DNA of 64,000 nt, taken from Pseudomonas phage BRkr. A program made the translations under genes and the position numbers. Under the pieces are notes generated by a model that was given only the letters and a program-made list of their open reading frames with translations, was not told the DNA's origin and searched no databases. Positions 10,549-64,000 of this stretch are shown here, in pieces. The DNA is taken from the sequence record LC765218.1. One strand, 5' to 3'. Every line of letters begins with the position of its first letter. Position 1 is the stretch's first letter.

Positions 10549-10580
10549 GTAGACCTCTATTCTAACCGTTTAGAGGTCTA
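10549..10580 (+). terminator. Hairpin TAGACCTCTA…TAGAGGTCTA with a 10-bp stem. Its 3' arm overlaps a TCTATATTAC motif.
   Basis: Perfect inverted repeat after gene 10340..10543. Confidence 0.45.
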
Positions 10581-10585
10581 TATTA
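10576..10585 (+). promoter_or_regulatory. TCTATATTAC promoter-like motif 38 nt upstream of gene 10623. Overlaps the 3' arm of hairpin 10549-10580.
   Basis: An exact 10-mer shared by five sites. Confidence 0.4.
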
Positions 10586-10622
10586 CTTTTATGCCGTTAA
10601 GCTTAACCAAAAGGAAAATGCA

Positions 10623-20080: not shown

Positions 20081-20328
20081 TGCTCTTCCTCAACGTCTGC
20101 TCGGTCAGCAGGTAATACGGTTGTAAAAGATAAGGCAATTGGGATAATACCATCTGTCTCATTAAACAGATCAGTTATCGGAAGTAGTATTTCTCTACCG
20201 TCGATTGTTAATAATGCTTCAAACATAAATATCTCACTATAGTTGACGGCATACACGAAGCCATTAAAATGACTCCGCGCATGCGTACTACATATCTACT
20301 GAGAAGATACACCTTCATATCATACCGG

Positions 20329-20361
20329 CATAAAGCCTTCCCCAACGGGAAGGCTTTTATG
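20329..20361 (-). terminator. Hairpin CATAAAGCCTTCCC-CAAC-GGGAAGGCTTTTATG. Identical to the copy at 40984-41016.
   Basis: Member of the conserved hairpin family. Lies after gene 20362..20538. Confidence 0.5.
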
Positions 20362-28752: not shown

Positions 28753-28820
28753 GAGTATGCTCTCAAGTAAACCATTTAGTTCATAAGATAATCAGTTTGA
28801 ATAAGTTGTAGGATGTATTG

Positions 28821-29477: not shown

Positions 29478-29526
29478 TTTCAGTATCTCCTATAACTCCG
29501 ATATTGGAGTATAACATCACGGCATA

Positions 29527-29551
29527 AAAGAGTAGCCAATGGCTACTCTTT
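29527..29551 (-). terminator. Hairpin AAAGAGTAGCC-AAT-GGCTACTCTTT directly downstream of the tRNA 3' fragment. It is a duplicate of the 30214-30237 hairpin.
   Basis: 11-bp stem. A paralogous tRNA-plus-hairpin module. Confidence 0.5.
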
Positions 29552-29557
29552 TGAATT

Positions 29558-29590
29558 TGGCTCCGCGACCTGGACTCGAACCAGGGACCC
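29558..29590 (-). tRNA. A 3' tRNA fragment (variable loop, T-arm, acceptor 3' strand and GCCA). It pairs with the 5' fragment at 30341-30374.
   Basis: The reverse complement reads GGGTC-CCTGG-TTCGAGT-CCAGG-TCGCGGA-G-CCA. The acceptor 3' strand TCGCGGA is perfectly complementary to TCCGCGA at the start of the 5' fragment. Confidence 0.5.
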
Positions 29591-29603
29591 AGTATATTTT
29601 TTT

Positions 29604-30161
29604 TTATTGTGTGGGGACCAAGGTGCTAATACCCCCATTAGCACCGACCCTAATAAACCTAGCCGGAATATTGATCTTGTATGCTCGGCACCATTTACGA
29701 ATAGCGTTATCGGATACTCCATACTTCTCTCCTATTTTTACAAGTGATAGCAATGTAACATCGAGGGCAAGTTGTTCTTTGGATGGTCGATCCACCTTAC
29801 GACGACCTTTGGCTGAACACTCGGGGCTACAGAATGTTATCAGTCGGTGACTAATGACAATACCACAGCCAGCACAAAGCTTAGTTGGATAGTTCCTAGG
29901 ATCAATACCGAGCCGTTTCATCCAACCATGTAACTTCATGTGTTGTGACTGAGGGAGAATCAATAAGTTCTCTGGATGGTTGTTAAGCTTATTCTCATCC
30001 AGATGATGAACTTCCTCGTCATCGTAAAGTGGTCTACCTAATGTGTCTTCTCCAACCACTCGATGTTCGTAAACCCATCCAAACATTTTAGGGTTAGCTA
30101 TGGCTTGACGATGTTCGGGTAAATATAATGCCCTATAGCCGTTAATTATTTTCTCTTTCAT
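29604..30161 (-). CDS. HNH homing endonuclease, 185 aa, paralog of 21337..21900. It lies between the two halves of a split tRNA gene.
   Basis: HNH motif EVHHLDENKLNNHPENLLILPQSQHMKLH, a Cys cluster, and a basic C-terminal tail. Confidence 0.8.
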   Translation of the reverse strand: MKEKIINGYRALYLPEHRQAIANPKMFGWVYEHRVVGEDTLGRPLYDDEEVHHLDENKLNNHPENLLILPQSQHMKLHGWMKRLGIDPRNYPTKLCAGCGIVISHRLITFCSPECSAKGRRKVDRPSKEQLALDVTLLSLVKIGEKYGVSDNAIRKWCRAYKINIPARFIRVGANGGISTLVPTQ

Positions 30162-30213
30162 ATCGAACCTAGGATATATAAATAGATCGCTAGTTCGATC
30201 TATGTGACGGAAT

Positions 30214-30237
30214 AAAGAGTAGCCGGAGCTACTCTTT
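30214..30237 (-). terminator. Hairpin AAAGAGTAGC-CGGA-GCTACTCTTT directly downstream of the GTT tRNA.
   Basis: 10-bp stem. Homologous to 29527-29551. Confidence 0.5.
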
Positions 30238-30242
30238 GAAAT

Positions 30243-30329
30243 TGGCTGGTAAGGTAGGATTCGAACCTACGATGGGCTTTCGCCAACGGATTAACAGTCC
30301 GCCCCCTGCTACCGCTCGGGTACTTACCA
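30243..30329 (-). tRNA. Atypical tRNA, 87 nt. It has a long Ser-like variable arm but anticodon GTT, which would read Asn codons.
   Basis: Acceptor TGGTAAG/CTTACCA (7/7), D-arm CCC-GAGCGGTAGCA-GGG, anticodon stem-loop GCGGA-CTGTTAA-TCCGT, variable arm TGGCGAAAGCCCATC, T-arm GTAGG-TTCGAAT-CCTAC, and a GCCA end. Confidence 0.6.
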
Positions 30330-30340
30330 AGAAAACTATC

Positions 30341-30374
30341 CAGTCGCTTGCTCTACCGACTGAGCTATCGCGGA
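30341..30374 (-). tRNA. A 5' tRNA fragment (acceptor 5' strand, D-arm and anticodon 5' stem). It pairs with the 3' fragment at 29558-29590.
   Basis: The reverse complement reads TCCGCGA-TA-GCTC-AGTCGGTA-GAGC-A-AGCGA-CTG. No matching anticodon 3' stem (TCGCT) occurs anywhere between the fragments. Confidence 0.5.
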
Positions 30375-30470
30375 AGAATTATTAACAACTTCTTTCTTGT
30401 AGAAAAATCACAAGTAACTGAATTACAGTATTTCACTACATATTATTACAATCTGAGTTAGATAGTTATT

Positions 30471-31478
30471 TTAATCAATGGCTAATGGTGCTAGTTTTAC
30501 CTGATAGATACCTGATAACAATTGGCTTTTTAACATATATGCTCCACCACCAACTGGCATTTTAGATCCACCTGCAATGATCATGCTATTATCTGGTCCT
30601 TTGGCTATAGATGAAATATTAAGGAATCCAATACCTAGTTCAAATGGTTCAGCCCATTTCCGGCGCCTAATATTAAAACGCTGTGCAAACATTTTAGTTA
30701 CACCGCCGACATCAACTGCATTAAGGTAATTAAAATATTCCCCATCTACATAACCATTACCTTGCCATATTGTTGCTTTGTCAGCAGGTATTATTAGCCA
30801 TGGTGTTAGTTCCCATACAAGTGTAGTAACATTGTATCTATAGACTTCTAAGTTTGGTATGTTCTTAGTATTATCCCAGCCACCAAAATGGTAGAAATAA
30901 CCATTATAATAAAATAATTGTTGACCTGACCTAGGTCCACCGCTATAGTCTTGACCGCCGAGCCAGTTCTTAGTCGATGGTTTTAATCGCATGGCGTTTG
31001 TACCAACTGGATTAACACACATAATAAGATCATTGCCATCAGACGCTGACGCAGTTCCCCATAATGCACCAGGACCACTATAACGCTCAACGCGACTACC
31101 TGTGCTTATATCAAAATGTTGTATAAAGTTAGAAGTACCTGTACCCCCATCACCTGCTGCGTTCCATCCAGTAATACCACCATAAACAATAAAGTTATTT
31201 TTATGTAATGTACCAAATCCAAGTGATACACCCGGTAAAAATGTACCAGATGCTGTTGCGCTTATCTCTGTAAATGGGTTTATAGTGAACCGTCTGAAAA
31301 CAGTTGCTGCTGATTGTCCTTCCGTATGATGTCCGGATCCAACATATAACGTATTTCCATCTACGTACGACATCGTACCTGCCAATGCTACCGGTAGGTC
31401 ACCTAATTTTATAATTTCACTAAATCCAACCAAGGGTGTTTCATCGCCTAAACCTGATGATAATAGTAATTCAAACAT
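30471..31478 (-). CDS. Kelch-repeat beta-propeller protein, 335 aa.
   Basis: N-terminus MFELLLSSGLG. Blade motifs LYVGSG, FIVYGG, FYHFGG. The 5' leader is conserved with gene 26905..28752. Confidence 0.75.
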   Translation of the reverse strand: MFELLLSSGLGDETPLVGFSEIIKLGDLPVALAGTMSYVDGNTLYVGSGHHTEGQSAATVFRRFTINPFTEISATASGTFLPGVSLGFGTLHKNNFIVYGGITGWNAAGDGGTGTSNFIQHFDISTGSRVERYSGPGALWGTASASDGNDLIMCVNPVGTNAMRLKPSTKNWLGGQDYSGGPRSGQQLFYYNGYFYHFGGWDNTKNIPNLEVYRYNVTTLVWELTPWLIIPADKATIWQGNGYVDGEYFNYLNAVDVGGVTKMFAQRFNIRRRKWAEPFELGIGFLNISSIAKGPDNSMIIAGGSKMPVGGGAYMLKSQLLSGIYQVKLAPLAID

Positions 31479-31723: not shown

Positions 31724-32071
31724 TCATGGACGGTCAGTCCAGTGCTTGAAATAGTTACCATCATTAGGGCGGCCATGTTTGGTAAGAATATTTTTAAGTT
31801 CTTCGCCAGACAACTTAATTCTATCGCCTACTGGACTATCCAGTTCAGGACAGGGTTCAGTCTTACGTGTGATGATTAGATTGTCAGTTCCATCTTTGAA
31901 GATAAAGATAAACTGAGTTTCATTATCACTAATCTTTTTCTTAACGCAATGTTTTACTTCTGGATGTTTCTTGTGGATAGCTACAAAAGATTCAACAAGA
32001 GTCAGTTTCATAAACTCAGGACTAACAAATGTGAAATATACAGCGTTCTGTGTTGGGGTTAGATGATTCAT
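31724..32071 (-). CDS. Hypothetical protein, 115 aa.
   Basis: Minus-strand ORF abutting 32074..32361. Confidence 0.5.
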   Translation of the reverse strand: MNHLTPTQNAVYFTFVSPEFMKLTLVESFVAIHKKHPEVKHCVKKKISDNETQFIFIFKDGTDNLIITRKTEPCPELDSPVGDRIKLSGEELKNILTKHGRPNDGNYFKHWTDRP

Positions 32072-32073
32072 AT

Positions 32074-32361
32074 TTACTCCGTATGTTTGAGATAGGTTTC
32101 AACTGCTTTAAGACCTTTATTAAAGAACATGGTTTCAACATAAGTAATATTACTTATACTCTCCTCGATAAGTTCCCATTTGATACAACGTGTAATAGCG
32201 TTGATTGTAATATCTAATCCGTTTGGGAATAGGGTTACTTCATCAGTAAGGCGAATCCAATCGGGAGCTTTCGCTCCATTACGTAAGCGGGGACTAAACG
32301 TAAGATTGTAGAGTTTCTGCAATGGTTCTTTTAGTAGCGCTTTTTGTTCTTGGTGTTCCAT
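32074..32361 (-). CDS. Hypothetical protein, 95 aa.
   Basis: Minus-strand ORF in operon packing. Confidence 0.5.
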   Translation of the reverse strand: MEHQEQKALLKEPLQKLYNLTFSPRLRNGAKAPDWIRLTDEVTLFPNGLDITINAITRCIKWELIEESISNITYVETMFFNKGLKAVETYLKHTE

Positions 32362-32370
32362 GCGTTTCTC

Positions 32371-32592
32371 TCAAAGACATTTGAATATAAAAATAGAATA
32401 CTCGTTATGATCAGTAACTTTCAAAACGTTATCCGTTCGTAGTATCTCGTGTCTACGGTATTTGTTTTCCAAAATGTCTAAGTGTGATATGCATTGTTCT
32501 TTATTTTCAAAATGAATGGTCGATTCTTTTGTAGATGTAATTCCAAACCAGCCAACATGTATTGCCAGAACAAACATTGTCGCGATGTTCAT
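32371..32592 (-). CDS. Hypothetical protein, 73 aa. Truncated from the track ORF because its upstream part overlaps tRNA-Pro and a hairpin.
   Basis: Internal Met at MNIATMF. The track's N-terminal extension covers tRNA 32648-32723, so it cannot be coding. Confidence 0.35.
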   Translation of the reverse strand: MNIATMFVLAIHVGWFGITSTKESTIHFENKEQCISHLDILENKYRRHEILRTDNVLKVTDHNEYSIFIFKCL

Positions 32593-32647
32593 GTTTATTA
32601 TCCCGATGCAATATAATACCCTCCATAACGGAGGGCTTATATTTAAA

Positions 32648-32723
32648 TGGTCGGAGTGGAGAGACTCGAACTCCCGACATCCTGCTCCCAAAGCAGGCGC
32701 GCTACCAACTGCGCTACACTCCG
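32648..32723 (-). tRNA. tRNA-Pro with anticodon TGG, 76 nt.
   Basis: Acceptor CGGAGTG/CACTCCG, D-arm GCGC-AGTTGGTA-GCGC, anticodon stem-loop CCTGC-TTTGGGA-GCAGG, T-arm GGGAG-TTCGAGT-CTCTC, and an ACCA end. Confidence 0.8.
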
Positions 32724-32729
32724 TAAATT

Positions 32730-32815
32730 TGGTACCCGGTGTCGGACTCGAACCGACACGGCTTTCGCCGAGAGATTTTAAGTCTCTTGTGTACTACCAA
32801 TTTCACCAACCGGGC
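32730..32815 (-). tRNA. tRNA-Leu with anticodon TAA, 86 nt, type II.
   Basis: Acceptor GCCCGGT/ACCGGGT, anticodon stem-loop AGAGA-CTTAAAA-TCTCT, variable arm CGGCGAAAGCCGTG, T-arm GTCGG-TTCGAGT-CCGAC, and an ACCA end. Confidence 0.8.
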
Positions 32816-33054
32816 ATTTCTTCTCTATAAATAGAGGCTCCTCAGTATTATTCAACATAAAGCCTCCCAGTGGGAGGCGATATGCTCATCAACACAACAA
32901 GGAGAAAGATACAACTTACCAACTGAAAGGAGGGGATCACAACAGGGAGTCTTACTTCCTAGAAGCCAGCTGGAAGGGTTGCTGGCTCCGGCGCGCTGTG
33001 ATCCTAGTAAAGATGAGGAGTGACATCTCTACATATCATTACATAGCTGGTAAG

Positions 33055-35411: not shown

Positions 35412-35517
35412 TTCAGTTTCCTTGTTGATGTCAAAATTGCTTACAATTGATATGGTTATCAAGTAAAATTATAATAACATCTTGTTAGAATATTAAAGGG
35501 CAGCTAAGAGCACGATC

Positions 35518-36465
35518 ATGTTTGAATTATTGTTATCATTACCGAAGAGAGCACCGAAGCTGACATACACCTACGATTTAGTGACATTAACACCAAGACC
35601 AACAATAGCTAATCATGCCACGGCCTGTGAACATGCTGGAAAATATATGTTGGTGGTGGACTTAACGCATCTACTCGTTCTATAAACAACTTCGATATTT
35701 ACGATATTGAAAATGATGCATGGACAGTTGGTGCAGTACTACCTGGTCAAAGACGATCGGGTGTAATGGCAGCTGACGGTAATCGCGTTATTTACGTCGG
35801 TGGGTATAACCAAGGTGGTAACCCAGTAGGACCGTTCTCTACAATCTACACTTACAATACAGCTAATAATACTTGGGGAACTTCAAACACGAGCGACGTA
35901 GCGCGATTTGAAGCTACAGGTATCCCGTTAGCAGGTGGACAGGTTATTGACTACTCTGGTTGGTCTGGTACGACAATGTTACCCAACGCTAGTCGTATTG
36001 ATGTTAATCCAACTGGTGGTGTTAGTACAACCCCATTACCAAATATACCGGCAGCTTATAGAACCCGTTATGCTGGTTCGTGCCGTAATGGAAATGACAT
36101 TTATATTGGTGGTGGATTAGACTCTGCTGGTTCTCCAGTAGATACATTCTTTTTACTATAGCCCCGTCACGAATACATTTAGGGCACTTGCACCGTTGCC
36201 AGTAAAACTAAATGCGGTTCAGTTGATGTGGCATAACAATGAAGTTATTGCTTATCTAGTAAATAGTGGTATATGGGCATATAACCCTGGTTCAAATGAA
36301 TGGAGACCTGTAAATGAAACTCCATCTGGAAATGTACATGGTTTATCGACCGGTGTACAAGTTAATAACGAACTATATCTAATCGGTGGTTTTGATACAG
36401 CTCGTCATGGATACCTTTCTAAGATTGTACCAACCTTGGTAGCAATAGATGACGTTCCAGTGTGA
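35518..36465 (+). pseudogene. A Kelch-repeat paralog on the strand opposite to the nrdA-nrdB operon, disrupted by two homopolymer frameshifts.
   Basis: Three consecutive open segments: frame 1 35518-35685 (MFELLLSLPKRAPK…ACEHAG), frame 0 35631-36161 (KIYVGGGLNAS…IYIGGG…DTFF), frame 1 36142-36465 (YYSPVTNTFRALAPLP…LYLIGGFD). Concatenated they give a protein of about 330 aa that aligns to the other Kelch paralogs. Shifts fall at an A4 run (35640-35643) and a T5 run (36150-36154). Confidence 0.6.
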
Positions 36466-36468
36466 CAT

Positions 36469-38790: not shown

Positions 38791-38944
38791 CTCTATTTTT
38801 CCAGTTGTTTATTGCGTAAAACGTAAATTGATGAATTCTAACATAACTAAAACCACGCAAGTATTTTTACGATCATTTAGTTTTAAATAAGTTAAAATCT
38901 TCTAACAGCATACCATACAACACCTAAAAAGAAGAACTACTCAG

Positions 38945-39340
38945 ATGGAAAAGGATATGCTATTTATTTCAATCTGGAGAATACAAATGCCTTATTATCA
39001 AGCTATTCTACCACTCGTAGAAGCTCACCAATGGTTTAAAAATGGCGACCATCCCATGGACCGCACCGTTAATGGAATTAACGAAGGGGCTATCGTTGGA
39101 CGGCATATTAGCCATGGTAGTGTACAAGGTGGAATGATCTGTCCTGACTGTAACTGTAAGATGGCCCTTCATGGGATCCTTAAAGTTCGAACTGACGATA
39201 GTCCCGCTGTTGTTTGTCCAGGTGACTATATTGAGTTTATTCGGGATGACAAGAAACGTATTCTGAGTTACAGGCTTCATCATAAAAAAGAATTTGAAGC
39301 GATCTTTGAAAAAGTTGTTACCAATGGAGTTAAGAAATGA
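38945..39340 (+). CDS. Hypothetical protein, 131 aa, with a CPDCNC…HG motif.
   Basis: Plus-strand ORF opening the frd-containing cluster. Confidence 0.5.
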   Translation: MEKDMLFISIWRIQMPYYQAILPLVEAHQWFKNGDHPMDRTVNGINEGAIVGRHISHGSVQGGMICPDCNCKMALHGILKVRTDDSPAVVCPGDYIEFIRDDKKRILSYRLHHKKEFEAIFEKVVTNGVKK

Positions 39341-39918
39341 CCGCTGTTAATTACCCGTTTGTAGATACCATGGATAAATTTGATAAGATCACAAAAGGTC
39401 TTATTTTTGAACATCAAGCCGAGGGTGAGAGCGAAACGATGATTTCGCATGAACTCTCTATTCTTGATAATGACGGTGTTGTTCATTCACTTCATTTCAG
39501 TCAAATCACTAGCCTCATTGATACCATCACTGGTAAGCACCCTTCACTCGAACTCCCGCCACAACTATTCCTTATCACGCAATATCTGCTAGAGGATCTT
39601 AAGGAAGTTGGAGAGAAAGGATTTGTAATTACCGAATATTTTATCGATGTCCTTCCCACTGGTAATAAAGCTATTTTCCGTGGTACGCTGGCACATAAAT
39701 CGACAGTTGATGGACATCCTGACTTTGATCCGTCTTCCACGATTAGTAAAAAAGAGTTTGAGTTCTCTCTTAATCAATTCAGTATTCTACAGCAGATTGC
39801 TTTGAGTCATTGCATCGCTAATCTACACGAGGAGTGTGCTGGGTTCCGTGGCACTTTCGATGTGGAATATACTTTCCATTGGACGCCCTTTGCCTTTAAC
39901 GTTAAATTCTCCGAGTAA
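39337..39918 (+). CDS. Hypothetical protein, 193 aa.
   Basis: Start overlaps the upstream stop (ATGA). Confidence 0.55.
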   Translation: MTAVNYPFVDTMDKFDKITKGLIFEHQAEGESETMISHELSILDNDGVVHSLHFSQITSLIDTITGKHPSLELPPQLFLITQYLLEDLKEVGEKGFVITEYFIDVLPTGNKAIFRGTLAHKSTVDGHPDFDPSSTISKKEFEFSLNQFSILQQIALSHCIANLHEECAGFRGTFDVEYTFHWTPFAFNVKFSE

Positions 39919-41023: not shown

Positions 41024-43210
41024 TTACCGTCCATAGAATCCAAGTGAATTGAAACTACGTTCTTGTTGGAAACGAGAAGTACGGACACGTCTAACACGAT
41101 CATCACGTACTTGTTTCAACATGGCGTCGATACCAACACCGGTTGTTTCTTCCATGTTAATACTCTTCGAAAGATTACGAAGACGCATCTCAAGCTTGGT
41201 AATTACGAATGGATTTGTCTCACCTTTTAGCTGAGCAATCAAGTCCTCGAACTCACCTTTGTTTTGCTTCTCTTTATCTTCACGATATTTTTCCAGAGCA
41301 GTTAACTCTACGTCACGAGTAACAGCACGGGAGAAAATTGTTGCTGGATTAATACCGTAATAAGAAAGGTTCTGTCCACGAATACATACCCAGTGCGCCA
41401 ACAGCATGGAAATTACCATGTCGTCGTGATTATCACGAGTGTGGTCAATTCGCCCATTCTTAATTGTCAAAGCAAGTAGTTCTGTAATCAGCGTCTTATC
41501 CGCCATTCTCCGGCTACCGTAATCCATTGAACTCGGTAATGCTTCAAGGAACAGGCTGTTACGAGAATACCGACCGGAACCTGAGGTGTTGAAACCAAAG
41601 TAACGTTTGAATCGATCATAGAACGAAGCAGGTCGTTGAGACAACGGAGTCTGAATATCACGGAACTCAGATTCTAGTACCGTGTGTTCATCTACGATTC
41701 TATTAAAGATTCGGCGGAACGGATCTATCCCAGCTTTATGCAGTTGCATTACAACGAAGTCAATGAGAGCAGTGCCCATCGATTTACGTTCAGGTACCCA
41801 TGTAATCGTCGGATAACGAATTAATAGATTACCGACGAATGCAGCAATAACAGGAACAGAGGTTTCATTATAACAACCAGCTGCTACTACTTCGTGTGTC
41901 TCCACATCGAATATAACCATACCAGTGGCGTCATTACCCGATCCTAAAAGTTCACTTGGGTCCATGCCCATCATAAAGCGACCTTCAGCCATTCTCTGGT
42001 CAACTTCATGTTTAGGGATATACCAGCGAATGGTGTAACCGTCTGGCGTGATCTCGGTCCAAATTGGTTCACGTTCAGATGATTTTAGCTGCTTCTTATG
42101 TTCGGGTGATAATGGAGAACCTTCACCACCAACAGTCCAGATATTGAAGAAGTCTCGGTCAGCGATCTCGCCAAAAGAACTAGACTCTTTAAGTTCCTGG
42201 AACAACCATTCATCTGTACGACCTAACTGCCTATGGTTAAAAGCTCCGTAGATGATAGGTTTCTGATCAGCCTTGGATCCTTTCTCCATTACCAACACTG
42301 CCATACGTTGGTTCACTAGATCGAACATTGTTTCAGACCAGGTATGTCCACCTGTCATGAACTTGTAAGCAAATGCTCCATCGCGAGTGGTAATGTTGCC
42401 AGCAGTTGTTGTAAAGATGTTTCCGTATGGTTGACCTTGACGCTTGGCTTCGGCACGGGCGGCTGAACCAGAGGCCAGGGCTACAGGAAGAGAGATCTCA
42501 ATCAAGTTAATATACGCAAATTCGTCGAACTGCATGATAGGTACTGTAAGACCACGACCAAGTTTGTCGGCAGCAATCTTATCGTTACGACCAACTGCGG
42601 TCTTATAACGGTTACCTAAACGAATACACGTCATCAGCTCGTTATTGTCCACGTCATTTGGATTAGCCCAGTGAATGTAATCAGGTAATAGATCTCGCAT
42701 TACCTTTAGACGTTCAATGTTCGCTGTTCGAAGTTTATTATCTTTAGTGATCAGGTTGATCGTGGTGTTCTCACCCCAGATATACATCATACCCGTCATC
42801 AAGATGTCAGTTGAAACCGATTTACCAGTCTGTCGTGGTTGTAACAGACCAAAGTCTAAGTGGTTAAAGAAGCACCAGAAAAGTGCAATGTTACCACGGT
42901 TAGCGCGGAAAGGGTTTGGGACGTTACCAGATGTCGCTGGGACACGGGCAACTTCACGGAAGTAATACCAAGGATTGTATTTACACTCCAAGGCAATCTT
43001 CATTTTTGTAGCATCGTCTAGATCTGGATCATAGGGATCTACTCCCTGAAGATCAGGCTGGAGTAATGCTAAAATGAATTTCCAGTTTGCTATTTTAAGC
43101 TCATCTCTATAAAGAGCTGCTAATTTTAAGAATGTTTTATTTGACGTTTTTGTATCCGCTATTGCTGTTGGGAACTTCTCCCAATCATCGCGGAATAAAA
43201 TAAGTTCCAT
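41024..43210 (-). CDS. terL: Terminase large subunit, 728 aa.
   Basis: ATPase Walker A LQPRQTGKSVST. Walker B-like MQFDEFAYI. C-terminal RNaseH-like nuclease region (…MVIFDVETHEV…). Size consistent with a jumbo-phage TerL. Confidence 0.75.
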   Translation of the reverse strand: MELILFRDDWEKFPTAIADTKTSNKTFLKLAALYRDELKIANWKFILALLQPDLQGVDPYDPDLDDATKMKIALECKYNPWYYFREVARVPATSGNVPNPFRANRGNIALFWCFFNHLDFGLLQPRQTGKSVSTDILMTGMMYIWGENTTINLITKDNKLRTANIERLKVMRDLLPDYIHWANPNDVDNNELMTCIRLGNRYKTAVGRNDKIAADKLGRGLTVPIMQFDEFAYINLIEISLPVALASGSAARAEAKRQGQPYGNIFTTTAGNITTRDGAFAYKFMTGGHTWSETMFDLVNQRMAVLVMEKGSKADQKPIIYGAFNHRQLGRTDEWLFQELKESSSFGEIADRDFFNIWTVGGEGSPLSPEHKKQLKSSEREPIWTEITPDGYTIRWYIPKHEVDQRMAEGRFMMGMDPSELLGSGNDATGMVIFDVETHEVVAAGCYNETSVPVIAAFVGNLLIRYPTITWVPERKSMGTALIDFVVMQLHKAGIDPFRRIFNRIVDEHTVLESEFRDIQTPLSQRPASFYDRFKRYFGFNTSGSGRYSRNSLFLEALPSSMDYGSRRMADKTLITELLALTIKNGRIDHTRDNHDDMVISMLLAHWVCIRGQNLSYYGINPATIFSRAVTRDVELTALEKYREDKEKQNKGEFEDLIAQLKGETNPFVITKLEMRLRNLSKSINMEETTGVGIDAMLKQVRDDRVRRVRTSRFQQERSFNSLGFYGR

Positions 43211-49454: not shown

Positions 49455-51548
49455 ATGTCCACGTACTACAACGCTGTTCCTAAGGTTGTGTTTAACGGGA
49501 TTCGAGATCGTAGCCGTCGGGCGTTCATTCGTCCCGAGATTACTTTCGCCCAACACACTCCTCTGCTTCGTCTCTTCACTGAGACTGGCCCAACTGAAAC
49601 CACTTATGTAGGTGATTCCGAAGATGGCTTCGCGTCTATCTTTGGTCAAAGCTCTCTTGATCCACGCAGCAAGTATTTTAACCAGCAATCGCTGCTGGCG
49701 CTGAACCTGCTTGGTCAAGGTAACGGTTTCTATGTTAAACGCCTGAAACCCGAAGACGCTGGTAACCCTGCTCGAATCACTGTGGCCCTGGAAATGGTCC
49801 AAGACATGATTCCTGCTTCTGTGACCCGTCTCAGTGGCTTTAACTATCCTGATGCTGTAACTGACACTGGTAACGGTCCGATTGCTTCTGGTACCGATAC
49901 TGTTGAAGGTTATCGTGCACGCATCGTTCTGATTGCTGATAACCAATCCGAAGTGGGTACTCAACGGCGCCTGCCGGGTACCATGGTCTCCGGTATGGAC
50001 GGTAGTCAGTCCACTGTATATCCGCTGTTCGAACTACCCGCTTCGTTCTTCGGTCAGCCCGGTAATAACCTGGGCATGCGTATCTGGGCACCGACTCAGC
50101 TCGATCCGGATGGCTACGATGAATTCACCGGCCAGCGCTTCAAGACTCGTCTGTATCGTGTTCAATTCGTTGAACTCATGGACGGGACAAGCACTCCGAT
50201 CATCATCAAGACCAAGACCGATGAAGACTACGTCAACGTATCGTTCGACGAAGGTGTTTGGTCGGAACAGTATGATCGTGATCTAACCATCGATGAAGTT
50301 CTTATCGATCAGTATAACGACGACGGTATTGAGTCGGGTATGTCCCCGCTTTATAGCCCGTTCTCGCAGTGCTATGTATATCGTGACAACGTAGAACTCG
50401 TTCGCGAGATTATCTACGATGCAGAGACCCGTGTAAACCCGGCAATCAATGCACATATCGATGCACCTGGTCAGATTGACTTCCTCACTATGCTTGGTGA
50501 AGATGGTGACCCGTATCAATCCATCAAACTGGAAGGTCCGATTGAAGGTGGTGTGCTTCTAGGTAAGAACGCTACTGTCTACGCCCAAGGCGGTAAAGAC
50601 GGTACCACTACCCTGGATGAATACGTCAAGCTTGTTGACATCGAGAATACCAACTTTGGTAAGCTTGGTGATCAGTACGAAAACGTTGCGCTCTATCAAT
50701 TCGGTATCCTGTACGACACCGGTCTGCCGATGGCCTCGAAATATAAGGCAATGCAAGTATTGTCTGCTCGTCGTGACGTACAGTACTTCTTCACTACCTT
50801 TGTTGAAGGTGAGACCCGTCTTCCGACGGCATCTGAAGAAGTATCCCGTGTACAGGCTCTGATGACTCGTCTGAAGGCTTTCCCGGAAGCTACCCTGTAT
50901 GGTACCCCTGTGTGCCGTGCGATGATTGTAATGCAATCTGGTAAGCTTGTTGGCGGCGGTTACAATAAGTTTGTTCCGCAGTTGCTCGACGTTGCCATGA
51001 TGTGGTCGCGTTATGCTGGTGCTGGCACCGGTATCCTACGTGCAGGCGCTGAAATGGACGTTGATCCGAATAACCGTGTAACCATGGTTAAGAAGCTTAA
51101 CGTACCGTTCTTCAATGCTCGTACATCGGCTAACCTCTGGGCCAATGGTGCAACTTACTCTACTTCGTACGACCATCGTTCGAATTACTACCCGTGTCTG
51201 CGTTCGGTATATCTGGACGACACATCGGTACTGCTTAGCCCGATCACTGTGAATATCTGCTGCGTAATCATGCGGTTGATCCACAAGATCCATGCTAAGT
51301 TCTCGGGTAACGCTTTCCTGACTAAAGAACAGCTTGTTGAACGTTGCGACCAAGAGATCCTTGATCGTACTCGTGATCTGTTTGGTGGTCGTGTAGACGT
51401 GATCCCGCGTACCGAGATCACCGGTATTGATGAGAACAATGGCACCAGCTGGACTTGCACTGTGACTGTTGCGGCTAATAACCCGCGCACCACTCTGAAC
51501 TTCCAACTGGAAACCGTTCGCCGCGAGAACGTTACCGAGCAGCAATAA
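49455..51548 (+). CDS. Putative tail sheath protein, 697 aa. A major capsid protein or another major virion protein is the alternative.
   Basis: The C-terminal region (…[48 protein letters not shown]) resembles the conserved sheath C-terminal domain. Followed by a 291-aa gene, the same size pair as the phiKZ sheath and tube. Confidence 0.5.
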
Positions 51549-51580: not shown

Positions 51581-52456
51581 ATGAAACGTTATAATGACCC
51601 GATGGCTCCTCAGTCCGGCTACGGTGCAGGTGGTTCCAAGAACACCATCAACCTGGCTCAGGCTGGTACGGATGTCTTTCGTCCTGATCTGGCTAACCTT
51701 GCGAGTAACACTCCTTACGTTAGCCGGAACCTCGTCCCGTTCCTTCTGGAAGCTCCACGCTTCTTCCAATACGCTAGCAATAGCCGGCAACTAGTTCGTT
51801 CGCTTAAAGCCCTGGTAGAGAACCATGTTCGTACTATCGATGGTCTACAGCAGACTGTAACTGTTGATACCGCAGAAGCTCCTTGGGGTGGTTCTGGTGA
51901 AGCCATCCAGGCTGCCACCAACGTTACCCGTGCTCGTTCGACTCCGTCGTTGGGTTGCTGGGAACTGCAAGGTCGTGCTATCCAGCGTTACCTGAAATGG
52001 TGGATCACCTACGGTATCGGTGACGAGAATACCAAGATCCCGCGTATCGTTGCAGAAGGTAACGTTCCGCCGGAGAAATACGATGCTACCTTCTACGGTG
52101 CCACGATTCTATTCGTTGAACCAGACCCGACTTTCCAAGACGTTGTTAGCGCATATCTCTGCACCAACATGTTCCCGCTGTCGACTGGTCAATGGGAGAG
52201 CCGTAAAGACGCCGCACAGATCGGCCAGAACCTTGACCTCAGTATTGAGTTCTCGGCGATGACTGACGTATCTGAAGGTGTTACCATGTATGCTCGTCAA
52301 CTGTTCCGTACACTGAACATTAAAGGGATGAACCCGAACGAACAACGTGGTTGGATTGAATCCATCTCTGCTGACGTACGTGCCGCCAACATTGGTCTGC
52401 GTGATCAGCTGGAGAAATCCGCTACTAACCGTGTAACCTACGATGGTGCTGACTAA
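51581..52456 (+). CDS. Putative tail tube protein, 291 aa.
   Basis: Immediately downstream of the sheath-like gene with an AGGAATCGAA-ATG ribosome-binding site. Size matches the phiKZ-type tube. Assigned by position only. Confidence 0.4.
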
Positions 52457-52698: not shown

Positions 52699-52725
52699 TC
52701 GGCTTGTATTTAAATATATTAAAAA

Positions 52726-52735
52726 CCTATATTAC
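52726..52735 (+). promoter_or_regulatory. CCTATATTAC promoter-like motif 36 nt upstream of gene 52771.
   Basis: The TATATTAC core is shared by all five sites. Confidence 0.4.
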
Positions 52736-55224: not shown

Positions 55225-55274
55225 GGTTATACCTCTTTGATTAATCAGATCATTGCGCTAAAAAATATCTTAGA

Positions 55275-55284
55275 TCTATATTAC
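55275..55284 (+). promoter_or_regulatory. TCTATATTAC promoter-like motif 40 nt upstream of gene 55324.
   Basis: Exact 10-mer repeat. Confidence 0.4.
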
Positions 55285-58974: not shown

Positions 58975-58981
58975 TATAAAC

Positions 58982-59019
58982 GCCTCCCTTCGGGGAGGCT
59001 TTATGTTGTATTTGTTTTT
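58982..59019 (+). terminator. Hairpin GCCTCCC-TTCG-GGGAGGC followed by TTTATGTTGTATTTGTTTTT.
   Basis: UUCG loop plus a T-rich tail after gene 58669..58974. Confidence 0.55.
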
Positions 59020-59022
59020 AAA

Positions 59023-59032
59023 TCTATATTAC
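59023..59032 (+). promoter_or_regulatory. TCTATATTAC promoter-like motif 35 nt upstream of gene 59067.
   Basis: Exact 10-mer repeat preceded by AAA. Confidence 0.4.
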
Positions 59033-59066
59033 TAAAATGATATTCAATCACTAAATAGGAGTTACG

Positions 59067-59852
59067 ATGAGCAATATTGATTTTAGTTTTAACGCAAAAG
59101 AATTAGGGCTCACCAAAAACCATCTAGACACCATCTGGTTCGATATTACAGGTAATGGCGCCTTGGATGCGTACAACATCCGTGTACAGGTGGAAAGCCA
59201 CAGTGGTTGGAGTAAACCAACTGTCACGTTCGAAGGACGAGATCGTTCTTACTTGAACGTACGTGGATTGAATTCTTCTTTCAATGAGGAATCGTACGTT
59301 GCCCATGTTAAGTCTTTGTTGCGTGACGTTTACATTGAAAAATGTGGGTGGATCGAACAACGTATTCAACGTGCGTATCGTGATGTAGTAGATGAGTTCT
59401 CTGACCGTGGCTTCTTGTCTAATACTACTGGTGTGTACCAGGTGATTACAGACGCCTCTGATAAACCGGTTAATTTCCAGATCATGGGTTTGGTATCGTC
59501 CTATGTATTTGGTGATCTCGATGAAGAGACTGATTCTATTCGTAAACTGGAAAACAATAATGTCTTACATTATCCGCAATGGGTTCGTCCAGAGGTTCTG
59601 CGTTTTGCGGAGGTAGCTAAACGACGGCTTGAATGGTTGACTGGTAGCAAGGGTGTCAAATCGTTCGTACACGTAATGAAAAACGATGCGAATGAATACA
59701 CCCGTTCTGTTGTTATCGCAGTTGATGATGTCGAAAGTATCTATCATGGAGTTGCAGTTGGATTCATGATGCATCCTATCCGTTACTTTGATATGGATAG
59801 GCTGGCTTGGGATCCTAAGTTTGTCTCCATGATCAAGCTTAGTAATCGTTAA
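59067..59852 (+). CDS. Hypothetical protein, 261 aa.
   Basis: TAGGAGTTACG-ATG ribosome-binding site. A TCTATATTAC motif 35 nt upstream. Confidence 0.6.
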   Translation: MSNIDFSFNAKELGLTKNHLDTIWFDITGNGALDAYNIRVQVESHSGWSKPTVTFEGRDRSYLNVRGLNSSFNEESYVAHVKSLLRDVYIEKCGWIEQRIQRAYRDVVDEFSDRGFLSNTTGVYQVITDASDKPVNFQIMGLVSSYVFGDLDEETDSIRKLENNNVLHYPQWVRPEVLRFAEVAKRRLEWLTGSKGVKSFVHVMKNDANEYTRSVVIAVDDVESIYHGVAVGFMMHPIRYFDMDRLAWDPKFVSMIKLSNR

Positions 59853-59854
59853 GG

Positions 59855-59898
59855 CATAAAGCCCTCTCCTTCGGGAGAGGGTTATTCCACTTTATTTT
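59855..59898 (+). terminator. Hairpin CATAAAGCCCTCTCC-TTCG-GGAGAGGGTTATTCCACTTTA followed by T7.
   Basis: 10-bp stem, UUCG loop, T7 tract after gene 59067..59852. Confidence 0.6.
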
Positions 59899-60171
59899 TT
59901 TCGCGGGGCCGGCCGCGCATAAGTAACTTGTTGTTAAAGAATAGATATCTTTAATAAAGAGTATTTTCCTTATTAAATGCTTTTTCTTTAAAAGAAATTT
60001 TATATAAATAGTAATTATATGTGGGGGGGACCCTTTGGGGGGGTCCCATATATAATTTCCTTATTCTTTAGTACGGGGTAGGGAAACAAAAACGACTATG
60101 TCGCAAAACTTGGAAGAGGGTGTCGTGGGGCTACAAAGCCCCATCCACCCAGTAGTAAAAATTATTTCAAA

Positions 60172-60181
60172 TCTATATTAC
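60172..60181 (+). promoter_or_regulatory. TCTATATTAC promoter-like motif 40 nt upstream of gene 60221.
   Basis: Exact 10-mer repeat preceded by AAA. Confidence 0.4.
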
Positions 60182-60220
60182 TTAGTTGAATATTAACTCG
60201 TAAAACTGGAAAAACCGAAA

Positions 60221-60442
60221 ATGAAAACATTGCTCCCTGATTCTTTGTTCTTGGTTAACAACGACGAAGACGTCCATGAGTTGATCAAACAGATGTACAT
60301 TAAGTTCAAAGTCGACATGGTCTCCCCTAAGACGATTCTCTGTTCTTATCCGTCAGTGATAATGGCAACGGTTAGTAAAGAGTATCAATCTCCAACGACC
60401 CTGATTATTCGTGTGGTACCCATTTCTGAAATTCTAACCTGA
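60221..60442 (+). CDS. Hypothetical protein, 73 aa.
   Basis: A TCTATATTAC motif 40 nt upstream. Short ORF. Confidence 0.4.
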   Translation: MKTLLPDSLFLVNNDEDVHELIKQMYIKFKVDMVSPKTILCSYPSVIMATVSKEYQSPTTLIIRVVPISEILT

Positions 60443-60452
60443 GGAAGTACAA

Positions 60453-60581
60453 ATGAGCGCTATCAATTACAACCGCCTGATGCAACATGCTATCGACAAC
60501 GGTGGCAAATTGGAACTGGTTATCCATGCAAGTGGTAACGGGTTTACTTTCTTGGTCCTTCCTAAAGAGGAATCGAAATGA
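60453..60581 (+). CDS. Small hypothetical protein, 42 aa (MSAINYNRLMQHAIDNGGKLELVIHASGNGFTFLVLPKEESK).
   Basis: Below the ORF-track threshold. GAGGAAGTACAA-ATG ribosome-binding site. Its stop overlaps the next start (ATGA). Confidence 0.35.
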   Translation: MSAINYNRLMQHAIDNGGKLELVIHASGNGFTFLVLPKEESK

Positions 60582-61342
60582 AATCTATTGGCGAAGCACT
60601 TCCAGCCATCAAAGATATCTTCAAGAACTTCCTGGTTATTGAAAACGTAGATGAAATCACCTTTGGTGCAGTTAACCCAGTTACCAACGATATCTTTCTG
60701 AAAGTATCGGAATGGAACGTAACACAGGAAGACTTCGAACTGACTTACAAACCTAGTGAGACAAATATTGAAATCACTAAACAGAATCTAGGTTCGTTCT
60801 TCAGTGTAATTGGTCAACGTAATACAGTTCATCAATTGGGAGAACATTATCAGAAGCTTATTGAACTGATGATTGCTGAAGGATATAAATTCTTCGATGT
60901 CCAAAGTTCTTGGAGCTTCGATACCGGTGTTCATTCGGTTAGTTATTATAAACCCAGTGAGTGGATCAAACAGGAAATCGGTCGTATTACTTTCTACAGT
61001 AATGATCGAGTATATCAGCTTCTAGTTCCTGAGAATACGTCATCTGCGATTAAACATGTCGAAGTTGATGAATACTGTCGTCCAAAGACAATCACGTTCT
61101 TGGATCTGAATACACTGAAGGTTAGTGAACGACACGAGTTTGACTTCGAGTCAATTCCGAAGATTTATCGGATAACGCCGACAATCAGGAATTTTGCTAA
61201 TCTGGATAGTGTATCCATTGTTAACACCATGGTTCACGATAACTGTACGGTAACCTTGATGGTAGGTTACTATCTTGGAGTCGATGTTCAGGTTAAAGTC
61301 TATCTCAATTCGTTCAAAGACCAAGAGCTAGTTCTTAGCTAA
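60578..61342 (+). CDS. Hypothetical protein, 254 aa.
   Basis: AAGAGGAATCGAA-ATG ribosome-binding site. Confidence 0.55.
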   Translation: MKSIGEALPAIKDIFKNFLVIENVDEITFGAVNPVTNDIFLKVSEWNVTQEDFELTYKPSETNIEITKQNLGSFFSVIGQRNTVHQLGEHYQKLIELMIAEGYKFFDVQSSWSFDTGVHSVSYYKPSEWIKQEIGRITFYSNDRVYQLLVPENTSSAIKHVEVDEYCRPKTITFLDLNTLKVSERHEFDFESIPKIYRITPTIRNFANLDSVSIVNTMVHDNCTVTLMVGYYLGVDVQVKVYLNSFKDQELVLS

Positions 61343-61488
61343 CAAATACCGGAGTTACGGTTAATATGTGTGACAATGGAGCGTTTGATAGTATTCATTT
61401 TGGGATGAACAGCAAGACTGTGCTCAATGAACAAGAACGCGACACGCTAGTTACAATTCAAGAAGGTTAATCAAGAGGAAACGTGGAA

Positions 61489-62436
61489 ATGACTAAAGTA
61501 AAAACTCGTGTATACTGCTGTGGTGGTGCTGGTCTGAATATTGGTGTAAACCTTCAATGGCATCCGGATCTGGTATACATTGACACCTGCGATAAGAACG
61601 TAAGTTCTAGTCATGATATCGATCGTGTCTTTTTGACCGAGGGTACTCGTGGGGCAGGTAAGAACCGTGCATTCATCATGCCTAAGGTTCGCCATCAGAT
61701 TGCACCTTTCCTTGAACGATATCCAGCTGGCGATTTCAATATCGTCCTGTTTTCTATGGGCGGTGGTTCTGGTTCTGTTCTTGGTCCGCTGATTGTATCG
61801 GCTCTGGCTAAAGCTGGTGAAACTGTAATTCCGGTCGTTGTCAGTGGTATTGAATCTACTGAGGTTCTGCAAAACGATATCGATACCATGAAGACTCTGG
61901 AAGGTATCGCTGCTGCAACCAACACCCCGATCAACATCTGTCCGATCGAAAACGTGAACGGCGTTCCGTATTCCGAAATCGACAAAGATGCGGTATTTGC
62001 TGTCCATGCTCTGATTTACCTGTCTAATCAGAAACATGAACGTCTCGATGTACTTGATCTGGATCACTGGGCACGCTTCACTAGTAAGCATAGTTACATC
62101 CAACCGCAACTGTGTGAACTGCATATCCATACTTCTCGTCAAGAAGCAGCTTCTGTCCCTGAGATGATTTCTGTCGCATCCCTGTACACAGATGCTTCCA
62201 AAGAAGTAGCTTATGGTAATCCGTTTGTTCGGACTGTGGGTATCGCATCCCCTGACGACGAAGACGCTCTGTCTGAGCAACTGCACTTCGTTATCAACTC
62301 GGTTGGTATCCAAGAGCGGATTAAGTCTCTCCTGGATCAAAAACAGGAACATCATCGTCAGCAAGTTCGTTACACCCAACGTGCTGCGATCGTTGATATC
62401 GATGACAACCGTTCTGATGATGGTTTCGTCCTCTAA
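61489..62436 (+). CDS. phuZ: Phage tubulin/FtsZ-family GTPase, PhuZ-like, 315 aa.
   Basis: Tubulin signature FSMGGGSGSVLGP, the GGGTGSG-type T4 loop. N-terminus MTKVKTRVYCCGGAGLNIG…DTCDKN. Acidic C-terminal tail …DIDDNRSDDGFVL. AAGAGGAAACGTGGAA-ATG ribosome-binding site. Confidence 0.8.
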   Translation: MTKVKTRVYCCGGAGLNIGVNLQWHPDLVYIDTCDKNVSSSHDIDRVFLTEGTRGAGKNRAFIMPKVRHQIAPFLERYPAGDFNIVLFSMGGGSGSVLGPLIVSALAKAGETVIPVVVSGIESTEVLQNDIDTMKTLEGIAAATNTPINICPIENVNGVPYSEIDKDAVFAVHALIYLSNQKHERLDVLDLDHWARFTSKHSYIQPQLCELHIHTSRQEAASVPEMISVASLYTDASKEVAYGNPFVRTVGIASPDDEDALSEQLHFVINSVGIQERIKSLLDQKQEHHRQQVRYTQRAAIVDIDDNRSDDGFVL

Positions 62437-62442
62437 ATAACT

Positions 62443-62469
62443 GGGGAGCTTCGGCTCCCCTTTTATTCC
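62443..62469 (+). terminator. Hairpin GGGGAGC-TTCG-GCTCCCC followed by TTTTATTCC after phuZ.
   Basis: Perfect 7-bp stem, UUCG loop, T-tract. Confidence 0.6.
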
Positions 62470-62484
62470 GTCTGGAGGTTTCAT

Positions 62485-62725
62485 GAGTTGGATCTTAGCT
62501 ACCATTGTCTCTACAGGAGCTATTGGCGAATTACCTGTAGTTAAAGAAGAAGAAGTTTCTGTGTCTTCCATTGAGGTGTGTAGAGCCATCATCGACCAAC
62601 ACAGTTCTTTGTATACCCGGAATAATTGGAATATCAGTTACCACCGTGGCGATAACAGTGAACTCCACGTTATAAACATGAATCGAACGACAAAGATTAT
62701 ATTTGTTTGTAAGGAGAAGAAATGA
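62485..62725 (+). CDS. Hypothetical protein, 80 aa.
   Basis: GGAGGTTTC-ATG ribosome-binding site after a hairpin. Confidence 0.4.
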
Positions 62726-63144
62726 TAAAGCTTACACCGGAACGTCTTATCAAACTGGCCGTTGATTGCACTGAAGTATTGATGCGAACTGTGGCACAGA
62801 ATGACCGTATTACCATTGGTGAACTCGCTATTAACTGCGACGTCTGTAATAACACAATGCGCAGTGCATTGAAAGCTTTGCTCTCTGACTCCGAGACAAG
62901 GGCTGCACTCCAAGTACTGTTTTATTATATCCAAGCAGAGGATACTTTCTACAAACAGGAAGATCTACCGGACGATGAGTTTATTCAAGCTCTGAGTGGA
63001 ACTGACCTTTATCAAAGGGATATAATGGACAGTGCCCGCATTTGGGCTACGTATGCCAGGCGCGATGCTATTGAAATGCATGAACATCGTAAAGCCGTAG
63101 GTGAACGAGCTATAGAACGTTATCAAGGTTATATGAAGCCTTAA
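62722..63144 (+). CDS. Hypothetical protein, 140 aa.
   Basis: Start overlaps the upstream stop. AAGGAGAAGAA-ATG ribosome-binding site. Confidence 0.5.
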   Translation: MIKLTPERLIKLAVDCTEVLMRTVAQNDRITIGELAINCDVCNNTMRSALKALLSDSETRAALQVLFYYIQAEDTFYKQEDLPDDEFIQALSGTDLYQRDIMDSARIWATYARRDAIEMHEHRKAVGERAIERYQGYMKP

Positions 63145-63220
63145 TAACCGTCCAATCTTTTGTATCAATTAACAACAGTAAGGAATCAATAATGAAACCT
63201 GATTAAACCTCTAAGGAGGA

Positions 63221-63718
63221 ATGATGGCTAAGACAGCAGCGAAAAAGCTCGATGAGCTAATGGCAGCTGAGCTTAACCTCGAACTCTCCAATTACACAGC
63301 GATGTTACACCATGCCGTCACCTTAGTCGGCGTTCTTGAAGGCTTTGTGTTTGTATATGACAAGAATGGAGTCACATGTTACGACAAAGTTGATGCGTGG
63401 TCTGAAGTCAATGGAATGCGTTTGAGGATAGCTCGGTTCCAGTCTAATCCAATGGTCGAGGATAGGCTTGCTAAAAGGATTTACAAACGTTGGTATGTTC
63501 ATGGGGGTGGAATGTTAATTCCATTGAACATTACTAAAGTAGATGACCTAAAAGAAAATTTCTATTTCAAGATTGATGACAACCCCGGTCATTGTACATT
63601 CACCATTTTTACAGAGGATGCTCCGTTTATACGTAGTAAGCCATTGTTATTTAACAGAAAGAGTCATCCCGGATGGGGTGTAACATTAACCGAAACATGT
63701 AAAGAAAAAGTGGCATAA
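63221..63718 (+). CDS. Hypothetical protein, 165 aa.
   Basis: TAAGGAGGA-ATG ribosome-binding site. Hairpin follows. Confidence 0.5.
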   Translation: MMAKTAAKKLDELMAAELNLELSNYTAMLHHAVTLVGVLEGFVFVYDKNGVTCYDKVDAWSEVNGMRLRIARFQSNPMVEDRLAKRIYKRWYVHGGGMLIPLNITKVDDLKENFYFKIDDNPGHCTFTIFTEDAPFIRSKPLLFNRKSHPGWGVTLTETCKEKVA

Positions 63719-63747
63719 ATGCTCTCCCTTAGATGGGAGAGCTTATG
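63714..63747 (+). terminator. Family hairpin CATAAATGCTCTCCC-TTAGAT-GGGAGAGCTTATG.
   Basis: 9-bp stem with CATAAA/CTTATG flanks. Confidence 0.5.
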
Positions 63748-63763
63748 TCCATGGGAGATAGAA

Positions 63764-64000
63764 ATGTTTAACGATATAGCTACCCTGATCCAGATCTGGA
63801 GACTTCTCGGCCGTCAGCGTTCTGCATGTATCGACCCTAATACCAAACGGCATGTTCAATTGTGGTATGCGCCAAATAAAAATTCTATCCTGATGCAAGG
63901 GACGGATCCAAATAAGCGGTTGTGTCCCGATGTTATATTTGAACTTGATCCTCTCTCGAAACGGCTTGATCGTATCAACTGTCTTTGGGCTGAAGATCAG
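63764..64000 (+). CDS. Hypothetical protein, 3' partial. Reading frame runs off the window end.
   Basis: GGGAGATAGAA-ATG ribosome-binding site. No stop codon through base 64000. Confidence 0.4.
   Translation, partial: MFNDIATLIQIWRLLGRQRSACIDPNTKRHVQLWYAPNKNSILMQGTDPNKRLCPDVIFELDPLSKRLDRINCLWAEDQ

Follow-up and report, generated by a model that had tools for sequence, protein, structure and literature searches.

The window analyzed here comprises 64,000 nucleotides (nt) of one strand, read 5' to 3', of the genome of Pseudomonas phage BRkr (LC765218.1). Translation of the window gave an uninterrupted open reading frame (ORF) of 315 codons followed by TAA at 61489..62436 on the plus strand, and its product was assigned to the phage tubulin PhuZ. 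The following features were located in this gene and at its start.

61489..62436, plus strand: PhuZ coding sequence; ORF with matches to PHROG 4733, PF22334 and PDB 3r4v/3rb8/3j5v, and 100% amino-acid identity to the Pawinskivirus PhuZ
61507..61545, plus strand: codons 7-19, RVYCCGGAGLNIG; N-terminal Rossmann start and T1 nucleotide-binding loop with G12/G13/G15
61750..61788, plus strand: codons 88-100, FSMGGGSGSVLGP; tubulin/FtsZ T4 signature loop, with G91, G92, S94, G95 and S96 invariant
62047..62058, plus strand: codons 187-190, DVLD; T7-loop aspartates, including the catalytic Asp190
62374..62433, plus strand: codons 296-315; C-terminal tail with acidic knuckle VDIDDNRSDDGFVL, in which D303, D305, D306, G312 and V314 are invariant
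61473..61479, plus strand: Shine-Dalgarno-like AAGAGGA, 10 nt 5' of the ATG, kept in HPP-Temi and PS119XW

Residues called invariant were scored in a five-sequence alignment of this PhuZ with those of HPP-Temi (94% identical), PhiPA3 (gp028, 70%), 201phi2-1 (gp59, 49%) and the phiKZ type (38%), in which G12, G13 and G15 of T1 and D187 and D190 of T7 were likewise unchanged. Both nucleotide-binding loops, GGxG (T1) and GGGSGS (T4), were present and invariant, and D187 and D190 carry the same residue numbers in 201phi2-1 and PhiPA3. Substitution of this aspartate (D190A) gives a hydrolysis-dead protein, abolishing guanosine triphosphate (GTP) hydrolysis and filament dynamics in 201phi2-1/PhiPA3 PhuZ (PMC4244570; PMC7804931). 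The last 20 residues (TQRAAIVDIDDNRSDDGFVL) included five acidic and two basic residues. The GTP-binding loops T1/T4, the catalytic D190 and the C-terminal acidic knuckle are intact. A sequence-only reading of the window had described a 315-residue product with the T4-loop signature, an N-terminal Rossmann start and an acidic C-terminal tail, and each was found at the place it gave. It had also given the length as that of 201phi2-1 PhuZ, which was borne out: the gp59 coding sequence (31884..32831) is 948 nt long, and the chains in PDB 3r4v and 3rb8 have 315 residues.

Translation was taken to start at the ATG at 61489, and the homologues likewise open with M-T/S-K-V-K-T-R. A GTG two codons further upstream (61483), proposed as the start by the ORF finder, was discarded, since HPP-Temi does not conserve it and reads ATC there. 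The gene was single-copy in the window by local tblastn. An antisense ORF of 373 residues spanning the whole of PhuZ (61471..62592, minus strand) was rejected as a gene and attributed to codon usage. Its frame lies codon by codon opposite that of PhuZ and stays open because PhuZ has no TTA, CTA or TCA codons; the same frame holds one stop in PhiPA3, one in 201phi2-1 and 18 in the phiKZ type. Comparably long antisense open stretches lie over other highly expressed genes of the window (sheath, ribonucleotide reductase).

The protein matched PHROG 4733 ('tubulin PhuZ') over residues 1-315 of 315 with an expect value (E) of 5.3e-105. It scored 140.4 bits (cut-off 27; E=2.5e-41) against PF22334, 'Phage tubulin-like protein, C-terminal domain', residues 186-274 covering profile positions 1-88 of 88. 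Among structures, the 201phi2-1 PhuZ entries (PDB 3R4V, 3RB8, 3J5V) were matched over residues 4-314 (E~2e-90) and phiKZ gp39 (PDB 3ZBP) over residues 1-314 (E=7e-63), so that the comparisons named in the sequence-only reading as its check returned PhuZ. A 328-residue 'Tubulin/FtsZ GTPase domain-containing protein' (PDB 9pm9/9pmk) was matched over residues 8-291 at E=5e-19, a score that falls between those of the PhuZ structures and those of TubZ/FtsZ structures.

The coding sequence was then compared with those of its nearest relatives. The ratio of non-synonymous to synonymous substitution rates (dN/dS) against HPP-Temi was 0.028, and third codon positions accounted for 133 of the 153 differences. 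From PS119XW PhuZ the sequence differed by six synonymous and no non-synonymous changes in 945 nt, and no non-synonymous change was found among six isolates from several countries. PhuZ is under strong purifying selection.

Nucleotide identity of the window was 95-99.6% to the Pseudomonas aeruginosa phages PA1C, PS119XW, phiLBG22, phiHQ and HHBS36_1, and ~81-85% to HPP-Temi. The window was collinear with PS119XW (88-98% nucleotide identity) and crosses the conventional record start, window position 38791 corresponding to position 1 of PS119XW and window position 1 to ~268,239. Six records encode a PhuZ protein 100% identical to this one, and in three of them it bears the annotation 'tubulin PhuZ'. 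PS119XW gp028 (YP_010660768.1) and the PA1C, phiLBG22, phiHQ and HHBS36_1 proteins were identical to it over all 315 residues, and their genes shared its position and neighbors and differed by synonymous nucleotide changes only. PS119XW and HPP-Temi are assigned to Pawinskivirus, a genus that NCBI taxonomy places in Chimalliviridae, and phiLBG22 falls in the 'Lin68 species', long recognized among the giant phages of P. aeruginosa (PMC7909554). The identity of this PhuZ is already known, since the same protein is labeled PhuZ in the public records of this phage species; the call is therefore correct but not new.

Genes expected of a nucleus-forming phage were sought in the window and in the collinear relatives. 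Neither chimallin nor RNA polymerase (RNAP) subunits had a copy in the window, where the best local tblastn match had E=0.077. In PS119XW, chimallin is gp054 (41096-42961; phrog_4795 'nuclear shell protein', E=8e-199), ~17.5 kilobases (kb) downstream of PhuZ, and the window stops 1.56 kb past PhuZ. PS119XW gp055, gp069 and gp070 are split beta-type RNAP subunits (PHROG matches each at E<=1e-170). HHBS36_1 carries a second beta-type pair (550 + 1453 residues) at 117359-123375, inside the structural gene block and adjoining a giant tail protein and the head-maturation protease; from this position the pair is probably the virion polymerase, and for both RNAP sets we infer the virion or non-virion assignment from position. 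Chimallin and two sets of split RNA polymerase beta/beta-prime genes, both expected of the Chimalliviridae, were thus found by proxy. The sequence-only reading had placed chimallin and the split polymerases beyond the window, and near-identical relatives do encode them there. One nucleus-related gene that it overlooked lies inside.

39337..39918, plus strand: ChmB (PA1C gp2 homologue), nuclear-shell-associated; match to PDB 7UYX at E=7e-130 over residues 1-193

The ChmB sequence hardly differed from PA1C gp2, the protein whose crystal structure was deposited as PDB 7UYX. ChmB associates with the nuclear shell and is conserved in only some chimalliviruses (PMC10643120). PhuZ itself is non-essential, does not belong to the 68 core genes of chimalliviruses and is lacking in a clade that makes up 24% of those known (PMC11724907). 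For these reasons PhuZ serves as a good positive indicator of a chimallivirus and not as a criterion; chimallin is the defining gene, and absence of PhuZ would have been compatible with a chimallivirus lifestyle. The lifestyle proposed in the sequence-only reading agrees with the placement of Pawinskivirus in Chimalliviridae and with the chimallin and split RNAPs of the relatives. We put the probability at about 97% that the gene is a full-length PhuZ, the orthologue in a Pawinskivirus P. aeruginosa jumbo phage of the nucleus-forming Chimalliviridae.

The closest experimentally characterized homologue is PhiPA3 gp028 (Miltoncavirus; 69.8% identity, 315 residues, same host species), in which the D190 numbering is the same and the DIDDNR-DDGFV tail motif is identical. 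PhiPA3 also retains the downstream anchor gene gp030, the phiKZ gp41 homologue, at 60% identity. It differs in genus and in its immediate flanks, which are not detectably homologous, and its gp027-like gene is represented in the window phage by only 34 codons. The founding member, 201phi2-1 gp59 (PDB 3R4V, 3RB8, 3J5V), shares 49% identity over residues 4-314 and all signature residues, but its host is P. chlororaphis, its genus is Serwervirus, and its N-terminal strand reads FAGGTG where CCGGAG stands here. phiKZ gp39 (PDB 3ZBP, 3ZBQ; 'phiKZ TubZ') is a member of this family too and conserves the acidic knuckle and the catalytic aspartates; it differs by its 37-38% identity and by the length of the phiKZ type (325-333 residues), in which 12 residues are inserted past the first strand-loop region.

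A mechanism for this PhuZ can be proposed by analogy with experiments on the PhiPA3 (70% identical), 201phi2-1 (49%) and phiKZ (38%) proteins. GTP-bound monomers would polymerize head to tail, with the T7-loop aspartates of one subunit expected to complete the GTPase site of the next and activate hydrolysis. The acidic C-terminal tail, or knuckle, would fold along the neighboring subunit and enlarge the longitudinal contact; in the studied protein this contact roughly doubles the longitudinal interface, and the tail serves polymerization, not cofactor recruitment (PMC3678025). Hydrolysis drives dynamic instability (PMC4244570). The filaments would build a spindle with its anchorage close to the cell poles. 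[quoted passage not shown] All four activities, from dynamic instability and treadmilling to the delivery of capsids and the rotation of the nucleus, are documented for PhuZ (PMC7804931; PMC11724907). By the same analogy PhuZ would raise burst size yet be non-essential; its loss of function costs ~50% of progeny (PMC7804931; PMC11724907).

The genes around PhuZ were then assigned by comparison with PS119XW, HPP-Temi and the model phages.

60221..60442, 60453..60581 and 60578..61342, plus strand: three co-directional small genes between a promoter motif and PhuZ, equivalent to PS119XW gp025-gp027
61366..61470, plus strand: unannotated 34-codon ORF, MCDNGAFDSIHFGMNSKTVLNEQERDTLVTIQEG, in the 146-nt spacer 5' of PhuZ

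Among the immediate flanks, the genes at 60221..60442, 60578..61342, 62483..62725 and 62722..63144 (plus strand) matched no PHROG family. The gene at 60578..61342 had no similarity to PhiPA3 gp026, nor had that at 62722..63144 any to the PhiPA3 gene in the same position. The gene at 63221..63718 is the homologue of PhiPA3 gp030 / phiKZ gp41 and is 60% identical. Because unmatched flanking genes stand alongside the conserved PhuZ and 63221..63718, the locus is a mosaic of conserved anchors among fast-turnover ORFans.

Both ends of the 34-codon ORF matched the ends of the gene of ~100 codons that precedes PhuZ in HPP-Temi, PhiPA3 (gp027) and 201phi2-1 (gp58). Relative to HPP-Temi, ~198 nt (66 codons) are missing in frame, and PS119XW has the same structure; the IHFG..KT motif is retained. 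The deletion was deduced from the separate matches of the two ends, as MAFFT placed the 34-residue peptide and its DNA poorly. The ORF seems to be what remains of a gp027/gp58-family gene after an internal deletion that kept the frame. Should members of that family prove to be factors associated with PhuZ, Pawinskivirus would offer a natural case of their reduction or loss.

A promoter-like motif was mapped through the window, together with hairpins resembling terminators.

60165..60181, plus strand: promoter-like motif TTTCAAATCTATATTAC, the exact extended motif, 40 nt 5' of the ATG at 60221; nearest same-strand copy upstream of PhuZ
59016..59032, plus strand: promoter-like motif TTTTAAATCTATATTAC, intergenic between the gp023 and gp024 equivalents, preceded by the hairpin GCCTCCC-ttcg-GGGAGGC
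55268..55284, plus strand: promoter-like motif TCTTAGATCTATATTAC, intergenic, upstream of the PS119XW gp018 equivalent
52719..52735, plus strand: promoter-like motif TTAAAAACCTATATTAC, intergenic, upstream of the PS119XW gp013 equivalent
10570..10586, plus strand: promoter-like motif TTAGAGGTCTATATTAC, intergenic, upstream of the gp361 equivalent
62443..62467, plus strand: terminator-like hairpin GGGGAGC-TTCG-GCTCCCC followed by TTTTATT, 7 nt past the PhuZ stop; 7-base-pair stem with six G-C pairs, putative in function

The octamer TATATTAC, to which the sequence-only reading had drawn attention, occurred seven times in the window against 3.1 expected, a weak enrichment reached by 4 of 100 shuffles. 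Its extended form TTTNARRNCTATATTAC, searched with <=2 mismatches, gave eight matches against 0.8 expected, and none of 100 shuffles reached eight. Five exact octamers (10579, 52728, 55277, 59025 and 60174, all on the plus strand) are intergenic, lie 36-50 nt 5' of plus-strand genes and have the upstream context TTTnaRRtc in common. TATATTAC is listed as a predicted phiKZ promoter, and its 201phi2-1 counterpart, WTTTRARR_BTATATTAC, is extended in the same way (PMC7058600, Table 2). On this sequence evidence TATATTAC is a genuine, enriched promoter-like element, and the attention given to it was warranted. Minus-strand octamers were located at 57077, within an acetyltransferase-like gene (gp020 equivalent), and at 58971, across the stop codon of the gp023 equivalent; both probably arose by chance.

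In the 5-kb region 59000..64000, terminator-like sites numbered 10, against 3.2 +/- 1.7 in shuffled sequence. Host sigma-70-type promoters were not enriched in the same region (6 versus 12.0 +/- 3.5 in shuffles); the deficit is under two standard deviations in one 5-kb region and fits a phage whose transcription is independent of the host RNA polymerase. G+C-rich tetraloop hairpins recurred on the plus strand at ~58981-59032, ~60131-60181 and 62443-62467, the first two being followed within ~25-45 nt by the TTTnaRRtcTATATTAC motif. Such hairpin and motif pairs look like terminator-promoter modules punctuating the small plus-strand genes. PhuZ would probably end a short transcription unit that starts at the TATATTAC-type promoter at 60165-60181 and stops at the hairpin and T-tract.

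Several observations weigh against the assignment of a full-length, spindle-forming PhuZ in a chimallivirus. The Pfam Tubulin/FtsZ GTPase domain (PF00091) scored below its gathering threshold (26.7 versus 33 bits; E=8e-6). A sub-threshold score with this profile is usual for tubulins so divergent. Chimallin and the RNAPs were shown by proxy, only in relatives collinear with the window. Literature searches found no experiment on the PhuZ of this clade; the one use made of PA1C was in ChmB crystallography, and papers on HPP-Temi and PS119XW were confined to describing their genomes. Promoters and terminators were assigned by pattern matching, and no TATATTAC was found in the 146 nt directly 5' of PhuZ, so that PhuZ might have a separate middle or late promoter. 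A bipolar spindle cannot be told from a vortex by reading the sequence.

The product could in principle be a TubZ-type tubulin for plasmid or prophage segregation (type III partition, with TubR and a centromere) or a bacterial FtsZ, since these belong to the same tubulin/FtsZ superfamily, sharing the GTPase fold and the GGGxGS signature, and phiKZ gp39 was itself first published as 'TubZ' (PMC3678025). Matches to TubZ (Bacillus plasmids, Clostridium phage c-st) and to bacterial/archaeal FtsZ did occur in the PDB search, but they were not significant (TubZ, E=0.08 for 4xcq and 0.1 for 3v3t; FtsZ, E=0.03-1.5), and the PhuZ structures scored ~60 to 90 orders of magnitude better. No FtsZ_C domain was matched by Pfam, and by tblastn 0 of 72,556 plasmid records matched at E<=1e-3; all 207 phage records matched were genomes of jumbo-phage size with Gram-negative hosts. 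The TubZ tail recruits centromere-bound TubR, whereas that of PhuZ is used for polymerization (PMC3678025). No PHROG annotation on the flanking genes scanned suggested TubR, in a scan that included no dedicated search for TubR or centromere repeats. With this score gap and no plasmid matches, the best hits to FtsZ or plasmid TubZ that the sequence-only reading had named as counter-evidence did not appear, and we regard a TubZ or FtsZ identity as excluded for practical purposes. A PhuZ that is inactive or dispensable here, and on its way to loss as in the PhuZ-less chimallivirus clade, is very improbable. The family is non-essential and lost in 24% of chimalliviruses (PMC11724907), in this lineage 66 codons have been deleted from within the gene directly upstream, and the other immediate neighbors are fast-evolving ORFans; against decay stand the intact GTP-binding, catalytic and knuckle residues, the low dN/dS and the six isolates free of non-synonymous change, and an intact, conserved ribosome-binding site.

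Two further readings accept a functional PhuZ and concern what it does. The protein might form an architecture other than the bipolar spindle of PhiPA3 and 201phi2-1, for example a vortex like that of the Escherichia coli phage Goslar, with rotation and positioning weighted differently. Higher-order arrangement is not fixed by sequence alone, and PhuZ roles are called 'diverse' across chimalliviruses, with the Goslar vortex cited, in PMC11724907. The closest characterized homologue, PhiPA3 PhuZ, nevertheless forms a nucleus-centering, treadmilling bipolar spindle (PMC7804931), and all interface residues tested are conserved; given 70% identity to that protein and a shared host species, a non-spindle architecture is distinctly unlikely. 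Unlikely, too, is that the PhuZ locus of Pawinskivirus differs functionally from those of the model phages, with its gp027/gp58 gene cut to a micro-ORF and its PhuZ perhaps a third 'virogenesis incompatibility' allele. PhuZ proteins of phiKZ and PhiPA3 co-assemble into non-functional hybrid filaments (PMC7804931), and the allele described here is 70% identical to that of PhiPA3 and 37% to that of phiKZ, all three phages infecting P. aeruginosa. If the idea were true, this PhuZ would poison or resist hybrid spindles in co-infections.

As the structure and cell biology of the family have already been worked out in three related phages, the assignment to PhuZ matters only as a correct classification: PhuZ, ChmB and the phiKZ-type promoter motif together point to a Pawinskivirus (Lin68/PA1C-type) chimallivirus. 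From this placement a chimallin shell and two phage-encoded multisubunit RNA polymerases are to be expected in the remaining genome, as are independence from host transcription and protection from DNA-targeting defenses.

A pair of genes of the sizes of a tail sheath and tube (697 and 291 residues), also remarked on in the sequence-only reading, was examined against PHROG.

49455..51548, plus strand: tail sheath, 697 residues; phrog_3242 'tail sheath', E=1e-263; PS119XW gp010 carries the same annotation
51581..52456, plus strand: 291-residue virion structural protein, directly after the sheath gene; phrog_3185, E=5.5e-119

The sheath was confirmed. Its neighbor was annotated as 'virion structural protein' only, and is probably the tail tube by its position.

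Within the PA1C/PS119XW group, the window represents a slightly different isolate, with a few divergent blocks away from PhuZ. Window blocks ~18323-20332, ~26907-31458 and ~35453-36467 had no megablast match to PS119XW, and the segments flanking them were 88-91% identical to it, as compared with 95-98% elsewhere. The blocks sit close to the ribonucleotide reductase genes, in a region of small genes and tRNA genes, and may be isolate-specific insertions or replacements.

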